From: a virus
Taxonomy: Duplodnaviria > Caudoviricetes
IMG/VR virus record: IMGVR_UViG_3300042922_001473
Reading direction: 5' to 3' (one strand)
Length of the DNA: 64,000 nt
The notes under the pieces are model-generated. The model was not told where the DNA came from. It searched no databases and saw only the letters and a program-made list of their open reading frames with translations. Shown piece after piece: positions 54,000 to 61,673 of the stretch; position 1 is the first letter of the stretch; each line of letters starts with the position of its first letter. The translations under genes and the position numbers were made by a program.

Positions 54000-54581
54000 A
54001 TGTATTTAAATAATGATGATTATAGATTAATAAATCAATTTAAAGATATTATCAAAGCCAATAAAACAATTATGAATACATTGTCCATTATGGAATCTTT
54101 GAATTTATCAGATTGTTGGCTAACAGGTGGGGCAATACGTTGTGCTGTATGGAACTGGATACATAACTATGAATCGGACAGAAATTTAAAAGATTTGGAT
54201 ATTGTTTATTATTCAAAAGAAAAAATTAAAATTGAACATGATGGCAAATTTGTAAATTCTGTGCCCATGGAATTTACAAATCAAGCTTTCATTCATGAAT
54301 GGTATGAGAAAAAATACGGAATTAATTTAAAACCATTAGTAAGCGTAGAAGATGGCTTATATTTATGGAGTGATTCTTGTAATTCTATTTTATTAAGACG
54401 TATTAATGGAGGATTAGAGATAAAATCATTAACAGGTTTATCTGATTTGTGCAACGGAATTATTAGACCAATTAAAGAACGTTATGAAAAATATGGATTA
54501 CCAGCTTCTGATTATTACAAAAGGCTGGAAAAATGGGATGTAATAAATAATTATCCTAAAATAAAGATTTTATATGAATAA
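54000..54581 (+). CDS. nucleotidyltransferase family protein (DUF925-like)
   Basis: GGAIRCAVWN, DLDIVYY, NQA, GL.DL..GIIRP. Confidence 0.8.
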   Translation: MYLNNDDYRLINQFKDIIKANKTIMNTLSIMESLNLSDCWLTGGAIRCAVWNWIHNYESDRNLKDLDIVYYSKEKIKIEHDGKFVNSVPMEFTNQAFIHEWYEKKYGINLKPLVSVEDGLYLWSDSCNSILLRRINGGLEIKSLTGLSDLCNGIIRPIKERYEKYGLPASDYYKRLEKWDVINNYPKIKILYE

Positions 54582-55785: not shown

Positions 55786-55910
55786 TTTAAAGCCTCCATT
55801 ATATAAATATTTAATTTATTTCCCTATTTTATATATTTATATATTATAGTAAAGCTTTAGTTTTTTAATTATTGATAAAAATAAAAAGCAGTAAAATTAC
55901 TGCTTTAATT

Positions 55911-56489
55911 TTAATAATTTTCAGCTTCAGCTAATATCCAGTTTTTAAATTTGTTTTCCTCTTTAAAAACTTTCTTTATTCCATCTTCGTGAATGACTTC
56001 TAAATCCCCATTTTCTTTTTCTTCAAAACGCCACCCATCTTGAATTAAATTCTGAACCGTCATAGTCAGTATTCTTGTTTCACTAATAAATGGAGCAATT
56101 TTTTCTTCAAAGGGCGTTTCTTTTTCGAGCTTAGTCTCTAAAGACGCAATAATACTCCCAAAATCATTATCAGTAGGGCATAGAATAGTATTGTCCATTG
56201 TATCTACAACATAATAATCACTTTTATCATTCGCAAAACGAGAATTGCCCTTGAACCCGTAATCAACATATACCTTGTATCGTTCACCTATTATTCTTAA
56301 ACATTTTAAGGCAACTGATTTATATATAAACAGCTTATCTTCCCTATATTCTAAAGAATCCCCTACATATTGTTTAAATAATAAGTTATTATTAATAGGT
56401 TGAATCCGTTCCATGTGTATCCTCCTAAAAAATCTTAAAATTACTTTTATTATATATTTATAATACCACACAAATGACGCTTCCACCAC
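55911..56489 (-). CDS. hypothetical protein (likely start 56414)
   Basis: AGGAGG RBS precedes internal ATG (MERIQP). Confidence 0.65.
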   Translation of the reverse strand: MVEASFVWYYKYIIKVILRFFRRIHMERIQPINNNLLFKQYVGDSLEYREDKLFIYKSVALKCLRIIGERYKVYVDYGFKGNSRFANDKSDYYVVDTMDNTILCPTDNDFGSIIASLETKLEKETPFEEKIAPFISETRILTMTVQNLIQDGWRFEEKENGDLEVIHEDGIKKVFKEENKFKNWILAEAENY

Positions 56490-56503
56490 TTTTTGTGTGA
56501 GTT

Positions 56504-56761
56504 TTAACTACTTAACATATTTCTATACTCGTTCAAAATCTTATTAGAATTTTCTGCTACTTTCTTGACTGAATATTCAGGTGCATTCATTCTTTTTTCA
56601 TTTTTTAACAATTGTTCAAGATAAAAATATATTAAGCTATAAACAATCCCTAAATTATCACAGCTTTCTTCATCATGACATGTTTCCCCTACTGCATTAA
56701 TATGTCCTATTATTTTTTCACATATATCTGTTATTCCAAAAAGACCTTTCACCTCAAACAC
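56504..56761 (-). CDS. hypothetical protein
   Basis: IG.I..VGET..D...NL motif. Confidence 0.65.
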   Translation of the reverse strand: MFEVKGLFGITDICEKIIGHINAVGETCHDEESCDNLGIVYSLIYFYLEQLLKNEKRMNAPEYSVKKVAENSNKILNEYRNMLSS

Positions 56762-56912: not shown

Positions 56913-57815
56913 TTATAATACCCTCCACCTATTGTAACAACATGGTTTTGGACATCTTTTTATCGGTTTATATTTTTTAACCAAACCTACATATTCATTA
57001 AATTCGGTTTCTTCTAAAAATATAGTAATATTTTTCCAATACTTTATTTCTTTCTTCTTTTGTTTTACAAATTCATATAGCTTTGGAACTTCACCCGAGT
57101 GTTCTTCGATTAACTGATTAATACTTCTTGTTAAGCTAATACCACCTAATGAGCCATTCTTAAAACGTTCATTTTTGCGACATACATATATTGCAGTGTT
57201 ATTATCTTTTATTATATCTACTTTAAAGTATGGACTTAATTTTTCAAGAAATGTTTCTTCCGAAATCCACGCAAACTCTGTTTCATGTTTTTCATATCCT
57301 TCTCTTTCTTGTATATGGTGAACTATATCCCCCTCTTTCAAATAAGAAGTTTCTATGAATTTAACTCCATCAATTTCATATTCTTTTATTATAGGCTCTT
57401 TTGTAGGTTTTTTACTGAATGTATTAAATATAAATACCCCATTAGGAATTAATAGTTCTGAAAACTTTGCAATTGAAGTGCTTAAAAACCAATAAGTTAC
57501 TGCTTGTTGGCAGAATATTGCATTAAATCTCATTCTATTATGAAATTGATTTACGAACTCTTCTACAGATAAATTAAAAAAGCTTATATGACGTTTTTTT
57601 AATTCTTCAATAGGAGTCATTTCTATTTCTTGGTCTACATAAAAGACAATACCACCTTGATTATGTGCTTCAAAAGTTAATCTTCCATTTCCTCCACATA
57701 AATCAAGAACTGAATCACCCTTCTGTATCTTCGCAAGGTCTACTAAAACTTTTGAGCTTCTATTAAAATATCTTTGATACAATTTTTCATATTCTGTATA
57801 CTTAGGATATCTCAT
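56913..57815 (-). CDS. class I SAM-dependent methyltransferase
   Basis: VLDLCGGNGRL, CQQAVTYW, L.PNGVFIFNTF. Confidence 0.85.
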   Translation of the reverse strand: MRYPKYTEYEKLYQRYFNRSSKVLVDLAKIQKGDSVLDLCGGNGRLTFEAHNQGGIVFYVDQEIEMTPIEELKKRHISFFNLSVEEFVNQFHNRMRFNAIFCQQAVTYWFLSTSIAKFSELLIPNGVFIFNTFSKKPTKEPIIKEYEIDGVKFIETSYLKEGDIVHHIQEREGYEKHETEFAWISEETFLEKLSPYFKVDIIKDNNTAIYVCRKNERFKNGSLGGISLTRSINQLIEEHSGEVPKLYEFVKQKKKEIKYWKNITIFLEETEFNEYVGLVKKYKPIKRCPKPCCYNRWRVL

Positions 57816-57816
57816 T

Positions 57817-58965
57817 TTATTTACCTTCCATTTCTGTTATTAAATTTCCTTCTTTATCAAACAGTAAAAAACAACCATGATTTTCAATATTAAACGAACC
57901 AGTTATATTCCTAACACTATCCCTTACAGTTCCAGGAAATGCATATGGTAGTGTTGGATAATTATTATCTTCTTCATGATAATGCACTATTACATCAATC
58001 TTTGGATTTTTAAATATATTAGCAAGTAACGGTGCATTTAACGAAGCTTTTTTTATCCCATAAACAATTACCTTTTTTAAATTATGGTCTACATCCTTCA
58101 CAACAACAGTCTCTTCTAATTCTCTTTTTCCCCTTGCAGTTGTAAAAAACATTTCATTATCAATTCTTACAGCGATAGTTCCAAACTTATACTTTCCCCC
58201 ATATATCTTTTCGAACTTTTCTTTATATTTTTCTTTATAAAATTCAAACTTTCCTACTACTTCCTTTGTACTAATTGCTTCATCTTCCTTATAACATGTT
58301 GTAGAACTATGCATAGTGGAATAATGTTTGTCATTTAATGCTTCCCAAATAAAATCAGGATATGTTTCCATATTTAACTCGATGATACTTCTTTCCTTTG
58401 TTATTGCGTATTTTTTTGTAAGGTCTTTGGTGTCATTTGCAAATACAGCAGTAGCTTTAGAGTTTAATACCACTTCATAACCAGCTTCTATGAGCTGTTC
58501 ATGATTATATCCCGAAAGAAGTTTAAAACCAAAAACTGCAGTTTTAGGGCTGATAATTTTAATCATATCTATTATTCTTGGAGCTATTATAAATGGTATA
58601 TTAATTACCTCACCTGGCTCGTAGTTATGCGAAGGAAACTTCCCTTTAAAAGGTTCTTTAGGAATTAAATTAGCAACTGCACTTCCAAGAATTACTGCAT
58701 CCATTTCAGGAGCTAACTCCAATACTTTATCTTTATAATCATAATATCCGTCTTGATAAATTATCTTTATATTAGGACTATTTGGTTCTGCAAAGCCTTT
58801 AGCTACTAAATATGTAATTGATATATTGTCTTTACCAAGTTCTGATAATTCGTCAGCTAATTTTGCTATTAACCCACCTTTAAATTTATTAGTCACTAAC
58901 TTAACATCATCCAATTTTCCATAAACAGGTCCACCTGTTATTAACACTTTCTTTATATTTTTCAT
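57817..58965 (-). CDS. CoaB (phosphopantothenoylcysteine synthetase)-like domain fused to class II aldolase/adducin-like domain
   Basis: VLITGGP...LDDVK.VTNKFKG, AVAN, GFKL, AND; then GTIA.R, TTARGK, ASLNAPL, IVHYH, NHG. Confidence 0.75.
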   Translation of the reverse strand: MKNIKKVLITGGPVYGKLDDVKLVTNKFKGGLIAKLADELSELGKDNISITYLVAKGFAEPNSPNIKIIYQDGYYDYKDKVLELAPEMDAVILGSAVANLIPKEPFKGKFPSHNYEPGEVINIPFIIAPRIIDMIKIISPKTAVFGFKLLSGYNHEQLIEAGYEVVLNSKATAVFANDTKDLTKKYAITKERSIIELNMETYPDFIWEALNDKHYSTMHSSTTCYKEDEAISTKEVVGKFEFYKEKYKEKFEKIYGGKYKFGTIAVRIDNEMFFTTARGKRELEETVVVKDVDHNLKKVIVYGIKKASLNAPLLANIFKNPKIDVIVHYHEEDNNYPTLPYAFPGTVRDSVRNITGSFNIENHGCFLLFDKEGNLITEMEGK

Positions 58966-59618: not shown

Positions 59619-59647
59619 ATTATACCATAATTTAAGGATTTTGTAAA
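59619..59647 (-). promoter_or_regulatory. sigmaA promoter TTTACA-N17-TATAAT
   Basis: Exact spacing with TG extension. Confidence 0.75.
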
Positions 59648-59723: not shown

Positions 59724-59777
59724 AAATATAAAAAATATCCATTTTGTAATATTACAAAATGGATATTTTTTATATTT
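59724..59777. repeat. perfect 54-bp palindrome with no spacer
   Basis: aaatataaaaaatatccattttgtaat|attacaaaatggatattttttatattt. Confidence 0.9.
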
Positions 59778-60155: not shown

Positions 60156-61673
60156 TTGAAATATATGCCTAAATCAAATACTAAATCTTTTATACTGGAA
60201 TTAAAATTAAATGCTGAAATATTTCAAATTCAAATTTTAAACAAAAGATTTGAGATTGCTCGCAAAATGTATAATTCAACTCTTTCGTATGCTTTAAAGC
60301 AACTAAAATTGATGCAAGAAAATAAAGAATATAAAGACGCTTTAAACAACTACATTGAAGCTAAGAAAAATAATGATAAATACAATATTAAGCTTCATTT
60401 GGAAACTTTAAATAATATTAGACTTTCATTTTGTTTATCTGATTATCATTTGCAGGAATATATAATTAAATCAAAAAGAAATTATGAAAGCCATATAGAT
60501 ATAAATACCTCCCAGAAAATTGCTTCTACAGTTTGGAAAGCAACTTCAGATGTTCTGTTTAAGAAAGGCAACAAAGTTCACTTTAAAAAATTTGGAGAGT
60601 TATTATCCATAGAAGGCAAATCAAATAAACAAGGTATTCGATTTAAAGATAATTTTCTAATGTGGAATGGTCTTAAAATTTCAGTTAAAATAAGAAACAA
60701 TGATATATTTGCTAAAGAAAGTCTTGAAAACCACAATATTAAATATTGCAGAATAATTAAAAAAATAATAGGTAACAAAGAAACCTTTTATTTGCAACTA
60801 ATATTGGAAGGAGTGCCTCCTGAAAAGAAAGTTAATTCTACTGGTGAATTAAGACATAAACTTTCAGAAAACAAAAGAGTTGGTATTGATTTAGGTACTT
60901 CCACAATTGCAATAGTTTCACAAGATATTGCGGAGTTAAAAGAACTTGCTCCAAATATAATGAAATATGAAAAAGAAATAAATATGTTATTAAGATATCT
61001 TGGCAGAAGCAAAAGGGCTACAAATCCATTTAACTATAATAAAGATGGTACTATAAAAAGAGATATTAAGCTAAAGTGGATAAGAAGTAAAAAATATATA
61101 AAAGCTTTGTTTAAATTAAAAAACCTATATAGACTGAAATCGCAATATATAAACAAAACTCATAATAAATTATGTAATTTTATTTTAAAATTGGGTGATG
61201 AAATTTATACAGAAGAAATGAATTTTAGAGCTTTAGCAAAACGTTCCAAGAAAACTGAAATTTCAGTTAAAACAGGTAATTTAAAAAAGAAAAAGCGTTT
61301 TGGCAAAAGTATATTAAATAAAGCCCCAAGCAAAGTATTAACAATATTAAATAGAAAACTAAACTATCAAGATAAAGAACTTATAAAAGTAAATACCAGA
61401 AAATATAGAGCAAGTCAATATAATCATGTAACAGATACCTATAAAAAGAAAAAATTAAGCCAACGATGGAATTATATAGATAATTGTAAAATTCAAAGAG
61501 ATTTGTATTCTGCGTTTTTACTAATGTGTGCAAAAGATAAAACAAAACCAGATAAGGCACTTTGCAATAAAGAATTTCATGAATTTAAAAAGAATCACAA
61601 TGAGTGTATAGAAAAAATTAAGTACAGTGATAATAAATTAATAAACAGTTTTGGAATAAAGAAAATAGCATAA
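60156..61673 (+). CDS. tnpB: large TnpB-family RNA-guided nuclease
   Basis: RuvC triad VGIDLG, IYTEEM, IQRDLYSAF. Confidence 0.85.
   Translation: MKYMPKSNTKSFILELKLNAEIFQIQILNKRFEIARKMYNSTLSYALKQLKLMQENKEYKDALNNYIEAKKNNDKYNIKLHLETLNNIRLSFCLSDYHLQEYIIKSKRNYESHIDINTSQKIASTVWKATSDVLFKKGNKVHFKKFGELLSIEGKSNKQGIRFKDNFLMWNGLKISVKIRNNDIFAKESLENHNIKYCRIIKKIIGNKETFYLQLILEGVPPEKKVNSTGELRHKLSENKRVGIDLGTSTIAIVSQDIAELKELAPNIMKYEKEINMLLRYLGRSKRATNPFNYNKDGTIKRDIKLKWIRSKKYIKALFKLKNLYRLKSQYINKTHNKLCNFILKLGDEIYTEEMNFRALAKRSKKTEISVKTGNLKKKKRFGKSILNKAPSKVLTILNRKLNYQDKELIKVNTRKYRASQYNHVTDTYKKKKLSQRWNYIDNCKIQRDLYSAFLLMCAKDKTKPDKALCNKEFHEFKKNHNECIEKIKYSDNKLINSFGIKKIA

Follow-up and report, generated by a model that had tools for sequence, protein, structure and literature searches.

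The 64,000-nucleotide (nt) window analyzed here, a stretch of DNA from a virus of the Caudoviricetes (IMG/VR record IMGVR_UViG_3300042922_001473), carries two adjacent minus-strand genes that together encode three domains. One is a fusion gene, P0001, whose product joins a domain resembling phosphopantothenate-cysteine ligase (CoaB) to a trimmed class II aldolase-like metal domain, and the other, P0002, encodes a class I S-adenosylmethionine (SAM) methyltransferase (Table 1). The original prediction, made from the sequence alone, had described such a fusion, with an HxH...H metal-binding motif, no CoaC flavoprotein, and a SAM methyltransferase starting 1 bp downstream, and all of these features were borne out, down to the exact coordinates and frames of the fusion. 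Read directly, the junction runs from GGAAGG (57829-57824), a Shine-Dalgarno-like motif 8 nt 5' of the methyltransferase ATG, through the TAA stop of the fusion gene (57819-57817) and a single spacer base (57816) to that ATG (57815-57813). Both genes lie within a block of six same-strand open reading frames (ORFs) that extends from a promoter-like site to a terminator-like hairpin.

The CoaB-like domain compared with true CoaB

The fusion protein matched the Pfam family DFP (PF04127) with an E value of 1.2e-14 (54.9 bits; cut-off, 22). An AlphaFold model built from 24 homologs (predicted local distance difference test [pLDDT], 85) showed the CoaB/PPCS fold (PF04127; 2gk4, 6th2/6tgv, and Escherichia coli Dfp 1u7z) across the whole N-terminal domain, with a VIA-align Z value of 22.0 against S. 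pneumoniae CoaB 2gk4 (root mean square deviation [rmsd], 2.8; 193 aligned residues; 20% identity) and values of 15 to 19 against the CoaB/PPCS structures 6ai8, 5int, 1p9o, 4qji, and 6tgv. Features of CoaB that are retained include the glycine-rich start ITGGP, the LD.VK..TN motif, the GFKLL and AND motifs, and one lysine of the active-site loop. Whole-protein homologs numbered 666 at an E value of ≤0.001, and the best 120 of these share 46 to 61% identity over 95 to 98% of the protein. In the alignment of 24 homologs on which all calls of invariance for the fusion protein are based, N26, N99, and F110-P-S-H113 of the CoaB-like domain are invariant; the Asn of the LD.VK..TN motif is also retained and corresponds to E. 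coli N210 in the numbering of published mutants.

The active-site motifs are another matter. In profile alignments against 2gk4, 5int, 4qji, and 6tgv, the family has GGPV..LD.VK..TN.FKGG where CoaB has GGT.E.ID.VR..N.SSGK, and the second motif reads N26-K-F-K-G-G in P0001 (N-x-F-K-G-G in the family) instead of N-x-S-S-G-K. Likewise, AAVANL stands in place of AAVADF, AAVADY, or AVSDY, with N99 replacing the CoaB Asp in all members, and the loop K107-G-K109-F-P-S-H-N-Y, in which one or two lysines are retained, replaces KxKK. In Mycobacterium smegmatis CoaB, D281 of the AAVAD motif coordinates a cation bound to the CTP triphosphate, which the K-x-K-K loop touches (PMC7794376). The acyl-CMP chemistry assumed in the original prediction is therefore not supported, as the equivalent of D281 is an invariant Asn and both SSGK and KxKK are rebuilt.

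Scores against the NCBIfam equivalog models all failed the cut-offs by wide margins (PRK06732, 62.5 bits versus 265; TIGR02114, 44.1 versus 217.2; TIGR00521, 47.7 versus 219.7). Judged by these scores and by the replaced Asp and rebuilt motifs, the fused family member is not an ordinary CoaB. The two also differ in architecture and setting: unlike CoaB, which has CoaC in front, the family has an aldolase-like domain fused on, and it occurs in genomes without the rest of the coenzyme A (CoA) pathway. Pfam detected no flavoprotein (CoaC) domain in P0001, and no CoaC homolog was found in the 64-kb window or in 27 related loci of phages and candidate phyla radiation (CPR) bacteria. CoaE was found in none of five CPR genomes with the module, which may be incomplete, versus 10 of 10 bacterial control genomes; nor was there a second DFP gene in those five genomes, where the sole DFP match was the fusion itself.

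It is highly improbable that the fusion feeds CoA synthesis, whether as a plain phage CoaB or as a CoaBC with the aldolase-like domain acting as decarboxylase in place of CoaC. The DFP match and the CoaB fold would suit that explanation, as would the database records that name some homologs phosphopantothenate-cysteine ligase and the occurrence of decarboxylases in the class II aldolase superfamily (2z7b and 6voq are among the matches reported below). The equivalog scores, the changed motifs, and the CPR genomes with neither CoaE nor another CoaB argue against it, and the obligatory methyltransferase has no role in CoA synthesis. Moreover, CoaC chemistry requires flavin, and a true CoaC coexists with the aldolase-like domain in a cellular cassette (locus L037) considered below.

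The metal domain and the methyltransferase

Residues 224 to 378 of the fusion protein superpose on the class II aldolase family, with Z values of 11.8 against FucA 4c25 (136 aligned residues; rmsd, 2.6; VIA-align), 11.7 against YgbL/OtnC 6voq, and 11.3 against both 2irp and 2opi; 2z7b was also matched. These values are middling, but the matches span the whole domain and share one family. The same core is found throughout the class II aldolase/adducin superfamily (the L-fuculose-1-phosphate aldolase FucA, the 3-oxo-tetronate-4-phosphate decarboxylase YgbL/OtnC, the dehydratase MtnB, and the decarboxylase HMPDdc 2z7b; Z values of 10.3 to 11.8 over ~135 aligned residues), together with the His-x-His...His metal triad and with GT..A.R, TT.RGK, and PGT motifs where the phosphate-binding elements lie. 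The triad residues H328, H330, and H363 are invariant in the 24 homologs, and the 33-residue gap between H330 and H363 is shorter than in FucA. In contrast to class II aldolases, the family domain has ~150 rather than ~210 residues, is missing the helical segment after HxH and the C-terminal helices, and always occurs with a methyltransferase and a CoaB-type partner. Pfam PF00596 gave no match for P0001 at an E value of ≤1; a precomputed PF00596 match exists in 3 of the best 120 of the 666 homologs, and P0001 itself has a weak match to MtnB (E value, 0.028). The catalytic Glu of FucA serves as acid/base and as fourth metal ligand. By motif comparison with the FucA sequence, the invariant N310 of the family (K-A-S-L-N-A-P-L-L) would fall at the position of this residue, E73.

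The methyltransferase is also recognized by fold more readily than by family profile. Its best Pfam score was 23.1 bits, under the cut-off of 27, and its model (pLDDT, 81; residues 1 to 216 confident, tail below 50) has a class I SAM methyltransferase fold, with a Foldseek E value of 1.4e-12 against 9icz and many further matches. The nearest structures, PsmD/SgMT, TylM1/DesVI, GSMT, CypM, and ToxA, are small-molecule C- and N-methyltransferases. Like the lid-bearing small-molecule enzymes (TylM1/DesVI, glycine-sarcosine N-methyltransferase, PsmD/SgMT, and ToxA; Foldseek E values of 1e-12 to 1e-10; TM scores of ~0.5 to 0.65), it combines a Rossmann-type SAM fold with a beta-rich lid and has motif I (D38-x-C-G-G42, conserved in the orthologs) and an acidic residue after strand 2. 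Identity to these enzymes is only 12 to 19%, however, and its own invariant set (CQQA.NYW, FNTF, E155, H167, Q169, and H177) matches no described family. Residues invariant in 18 orthologs are D38, C40, G42, C102, Q104, Y108, W109, E155, H167, Q169, and H177. Residues 216 to 300 form an 85-aa disordered, Cys-rich tail that ends in CPKPCCYNRWRVL and has no counterpart in 17 aligned orthologs; it may be an addition specific to the phage or may bind zinc. Complex prediction for the fusion protein and the methyltransferase gave a score of 0.00, which counts neither for nor against binding.

Linkage, distribution, and genomic setting

The pairing of the two genes is kept almost throughout. A neighborhood check of 28 independent loci (19 from phages or metagenomes, 8 from bacteria of CPR type, and this window) placed the methyltransferase gene directly 3' of the fusion gene in 25; in the remaining three, it lies 1.2 kb downstream (L025), is one gene away (L038), or is fused (L031). 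In L038, the intervening gene encodes a DUF488 protein, and the fusion is 57% identical to that of the window (P0003 to P0007 are as close or closer); nearby (L038:795-12786) are genes for a 691-aa kinase-phosphatase-RNA ligase (Pnkp-like), a 537-aa PRK-family kinase, and a YpsA SLOG protein.

The L031 protein, P0122 (540 aa), is a triple fusion whose C terminus aligned with the methyltransferase profile (hhalign probability, 96%; E value, 2.8e-9), and two further proteins, P0148 and P0201, are fusions of the aldolase-like domain with the methyltransferase. An exhaustive HMMER search of 1.84 billion proteins found only 279 representatives of the aldolase-like domain at 50% identity (E value, ≤0.001), nearly all of them in the fused form, with P0148 and P0201 among the rest. 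Stand-alone aldolase-like forms of ~220 to 240 aa keep a remnant of the last ~60 CoaB-like residues, short forms of the C-terminal domain are mostly fragments, and no longer fused forms (670 to 2000 aa) were found at an E value of ≤1e-10, which is weak evidence. Three different fusion patterns of the same three domains are strong evidence that these domains act together. The unit is also self-contained, as flanking genes differ in every CPR locus. Beyond the methyltransferase, no general conserved neighbor emerged from all-against-all BLAST or from Pfam searches of 114 flanking ORFs.

The module is common in jumbo phages and rare in cells. It is carried by 16 IMG/VR contigs of 25 to 548 kb, and ESM Atlas clusters of the family are 77 to 100% viral, while even sampling of 201 Patescibacteria genomes found it in only 2, including the seed genome. 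Phage and bacterial copies are ~45 to 60% identical, and in the tree, whose backbone is unresolved, the bacterial copies cluster on short branches among long-branched phage copies. Rarity in cells, a mostly viral occurrence, and this tree pattern together fit an accessory mobile module rather than a housekeeping function. Among phage databases, PHROGs gave no match for either protein; a protein search of INPHARED found two unannotated huge-phage records, and a DNA-level search found no match.

The window itself (~26% GC, AT-rich) has many short ORFs without a family match, and no tRNA genes were found in its 64 kb. Because contigs of up to 534,699 bp recovered in the homolog search also carry the fusion protein, and relatives lie on the large IMG/VR contigs, it is best read as a fragment of a huge phage. 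Several features near the operon deserve mention in their own right. A 505-aa ORF divergent from the operon (60156-61673, plus strand) has a weak OrfB_IS605 (TnpB-like) match (E value, 0.0026) and may be a transposon-derived nuclease gene in the phage; between it and the operon, a T-run follows a perfect hairpin with arms of 20 bp (59727-59774), which scores as terminator-like on the plus strand. One of the very few family-matched ORFs of the region encodes an NTP_transf_6 (PF06042) nucleotidyltransferase (54000-54581, plus strand; E value, 4e-26). Outside the window, the same phage contig carries a small acid-soluble spore protein (SASP) gene (PF00269; L001:2265-2492), which hints at a spore-forming Bacillota host. 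On another, 260-kb phage contig (L015:9006-11207), an AcrVA2-like gene and an adenylosuccinate-synthetase homolog, which could be PurZ-type, as in 2-aminoadenine genomes, are close to the module.

Table 1. Module genes, their domains, and other features of the operon in the 64-kb window
Feature	Coordinates	Strand	Description and basis
Fusion gene (P0001), CoaB-like + class II aldolase-like	57817-58965	-	382 aa; ORF and translation, Pfam DFP, folds, homologs
CoaB-like (DFP/PPCS fold) domain, aa 1-215	58321-58965	-	Structure match, profile alignments, invariant residues
Trimmed class II aldolase-fold metal domain, aa 227-376	57838-58287	-	Structure match, invariant H328/H330/H363
Class I SAM methyltransferase gene (P0002)	56913-57815	-	300 aa; 18-ortholog alignment, model, structure matches
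Methyltransferase catalytic core + beta-rich lid, aa 1-216	57168-57815	-	Model confidence
Methyltransferase 85-aa tail	56913-57167	-	Low confidence, Cys-rich
Translational-coupling junction	57813-57829	-	Sequence read directly
Promoter-like site, TTTACA-17-TATAAT with TG	59619-59647	-	11/12 consensus matches; consensus scan only
Two small upstream ORFs, 98 aa + 83 aa	58995-59582	-	No family match; not kept beside module elsewhere
Two downstream ORFs, 85 aa + 192/167 aa, then terminator-like hairpin	55885-56761	-	No family match
Terminator-like hairpin	55885-55906	-	Consensus scan only

Cofactor genes near the module and its possible functions

With moderate confidence, we read the three domains as a self-contained enzyme set for the tailoring of a small carboxylic acid, probably a phosphorylated one, and the module as an accessory, horizontally mobile element of huge phages with only sporadic occurrence in small-genome bacteria. 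In a first step, the aldolase-like domain would use its three-His metal and phosphate-type pocket to bind a small, probably phosphorylated, keto or hydroxy carboxylic acid, which would then be enolized, dehydrated, or decarboxylated. The lid-bearing methyltransferase would methylate that substrate on carbon or nitrogen, and the rebuilt CoaB-type domain would bind a nucleotide to activate or couple the carboxylate of the acid. We infer this class of substrate, this order of steps, and the ligation chemistry from what is known of the nearest relatives. CoaB naturally uses a phospho-acid as its substrate, and enzymes of the class II aldolase fold work on phosphorylated ketoses or keto acids via a metal-stabilized enolate; hence the idea of a phospho-acid. 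A small-molecule methyl acceptor is suggested by the nearest methyltransferase structures, which are lid-bearing small-molecule N- and C-methyltransferases, and the fusions of the aldolase-like domain with the methyltransferase would fit methylation of a metal-bound enolate or of a neighboring heteroatom.

Several points weigh against this interpretation. The cation-binding Asp of CoaB is lost, and the CoaB-like domain may merely bind a nucleotide-like ligand rather than ligate. The metal domain presumably has Asn for the catalytic Glu of FucA and is missing ~60 residues of a full class II aldolase, and may therefore serve for binding or as a scaffold. Phage copies also have many nucleotide, NAD, and RNA-repair genes nearby, which would equally fit a nucleotide-derived or nucleic-acid substrate.

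In a cellular relative, the domains stand beside known enzymes. In locus L037 (L037:5812-9366), an overlapping operon encodes CoaC, CoaB, the 439-aa aldolase-like and methyltransferase fusion P0201, and a class I/II aminotransferase; it stands under a divergently encoded LysR regulator and adjoins SUF Fe-S assembly genes. Its source, G221, is a bacterial genome of 1.2 Mb and 28% GC, and such a split-form cassette occurs in 1 of 121 genomes of that order. CoaC matched TIGR00521 (E value, 1.5e-62), and CoaB is near canonical (PRK06732 E value, 4e-72; 242.7 bits, versus 62.5 for P0001), with GGTSEDID..NRSSGK and AVSDY motifs. The rebuilt CoaB-type partner belongs to the phage and CPR form, and the canonical one to the cellular cassette. 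Identity to the phage proteins is 47% for the aldolase-like half of P0201 and 42% for the methyltransferase half, and weaker matches of the aminotransferase include an aminotransferase of beta-methyl-arginine synthesis. G221, a possibly incomplete genome, yielded no CoaE, no PanC, and no PanK of type I or III, and its CoaB and CoaC therefore look dedicated to the cassette. On a second contig, genes for a DFP protein (397 aa), an Aldolase_II-like protein (366 aa), a stand-alone aldolase-like protein, and one more protein stand in tandem, the first two junctions overlapping. The original prediction of a non-CoA pathway thus stands in part: the CPR genomes without CoaE or a second CoaB favor it, but it is too firm in view of the near-canonical CoaC and CoaB of L037.

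These cassettes raise an alternative that overlaps the preferred reading, namely, a side branch of pantothenate and CoA metabolism. The aldolase-like domain and methyltransferase, joined in the full cassette by the aminotransferase, would form or change an acid resembling phosphopantoate or phosphopantothenate, or else the amino acid to be ligated; the CoaB-type ligase would then couple the two, and in the full cassette CoaC would decarboxylate the product to a pantetheine-like thiol or antimetabolite, the phage form being a shortened version. We consider both the early and the later steps of this scheme unlikely. The L037 operon, the tandem genes of the second contig, and the apparently dedicated CoaB and CoaC of G221 speak for it, as does the beta-methyl-arginine match, which has the logic of an aminotransferase combined with a C-methyltransferase. 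Yet phage and CPR loci have neither CoaC nor the aminotransferase, the phage CoaB-like domain has had canonical CoaB residues replaced, and CPR genomes with the module have no CoaE; the G221 argument is itself limited by the possible incompleteness of that genome and by a PanK search of types I and III. A link to acyl carrier protein, suggested by L015, was dropped because just 1 of 15 module phages has a PP-binding gene, a scarcity that also tells against the side branch. Plasmid relatives were likewise set aside as examples of the cassette: the gene found on Priestia plasmids, such as Priestia megaterium plasmid pBMV_2 (L036:6992-7693), and annotated as phosphopantothenoylcysteine decarboxylase is a different, stand-alone CoaB-like gene beside fabH, an acyltransferase gene, and fabZ.

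Genes of nicotinamide adenine dinucleotide (NAD) synthesis accompany some copies of the module. Of the 16 IMG/VR phage loci, 6 have a PncB-type nicotinate phosphoribosyltransferase (NAPRTase) gene no more than 6 kb from the module, and 4 have NadE there; in L032, the order is pncB ... fusion, methyltransferase, 94-aa ORF, nadE. Other neighbors in some loci include a weak isochorismatase (PncA-like) match, YAcAr/YpsA SLOG proteins, a Macro domain, Tpt1, and an NAD-dependent ligase. PncB and NadE occur together in 5 of 5 CPR genomes with the module, compared with PncB in 8 of 14 control genomes. NAD synthesis clusters have been described in jumbo phages (PMC11662467, PMC9503650), and the position of the module beside pncB and nadE in two huge-phage clades resembles the phage clusters NadV/NadM-NadR and pncB-nadD-nadE (see also PMC7824862), although the module proteins are not homologous to any enzyme of those pathways. 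A 195-aa ORF kept beside the module in the NAD-adjacent clades yielded no family or fold.

Such a setting suggests that the module may act on the NAD and ADP-ribose economy of the infected cell, processing nicotinate, nicotinate mononucleotide (NaMN), ADP-ribose, or an NAD-derived signal and so restoring NAD or blunting NAD-based defenses. We see a limited chance of this, and the same limited chance for the corresponding division of labor, in which the CoaB-like pocket would hold the nucleotide part while the metal domain worked on the ribose- or ribulose-phosphate part. The adjacency is absent for most copies, and all six NAPRTase-adjacent loci fall into two tree clades. Four phage records rated 92 to 100% complete by CheckV have the module without a NAPRTase domain match, and three other phages have NAPRTase 24 to 46 kb away. 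In CPR genomes, the PncB, NadD-like, and NadE genes are located away from the module, and no NAD genes were found in the 64-kb window. A specific version, in which the module replaces NadD, was dropped because the 548-kb phage G001 has a NadD-like gene and all five CPR genomes have CTP_transf_like (NadD/CoaD-type) genes; the module thus fills no obvious gap in the pathway. Nor would a role in NAD metabolism account for the canonical CoaC-CoaB cassette of L037.

The original prediction also offered a nucleotide or DNA modification, for which we found no specific support. We judge it quite improbable that the module serves phage DNA hypermodification, or the modification or repair of RNA or tRNA ends, with the methyltransferase acting on a base or ribose. 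A phage-dominated distribution with sporadic cellular copies would be in keeping with such a role, RNA ligase, PNK-type kinases, Tpt1, RlaP, and a Pnkp-like protein are encoded near some copies, and PADLOC matched the methyltransferase to the methyltransferase region of mad2 (E values of 2e-10 to 2e-13), a generic match. However, in structure the methyltransferase resembles enzymes that close a lid over small molecules rather than methyltransferases of DNA or RNA, and it has no nucleic-acid-binding domain. Each of the neighboring families occurs in ≤3 of the 114 scanned flanking ORFs, the flanking-ORF comparison found no conserved transglycosylase, glycosylase, hydroxymethylase, or DNA kinase partner, and cellular copies are operonic with CoaC, CoaB, and an aminotransferase.

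Returning to the tailoring of a small carboxylic acid, we tentatively extend that reading to an undescribed three-step pathway, in which the rebuilt CoaB-type domain would perform a new nucleotide-dependent coupling on a methylated, metal-enolized phospho-acid. Its product may be an antimetabolite or may belong, as a cofactor-like metabolite, to the CoA or NAD branch; huge phages would use the pathway to reprogram or outcompete host metabolism, and a few tiny symbiotic bacteria would have acquired it by capture. No description of the fusion or the cassette was found in the literature searched, and the phage NAD and jumbo-phage papers make no mention of either; the original prediction, too, knew of no described function for the combination.

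These results bear on how such genes are annotated. By this evidence, phosphopantothenate-cysteine ligase is the wrong label for the fused form, and its use in databases leads to an overprediction of CoA synthesis in phages and CPR bacteria. With ~280 representatives at 50% identity, the family is compact, and its conservation is very strong; its three catalytic domains are linked so tightly that they occur fused in three ways. Tight linkage and conservation of this kind are typical of a real pathway that has yet to be assigned, and the family is a well-defined target for enzyme discovery. If its product is a cofactor analog or touches NAD or CoA pools, the module would represent a new kind of auxiliary metabolism or counter-defense in giant phages.

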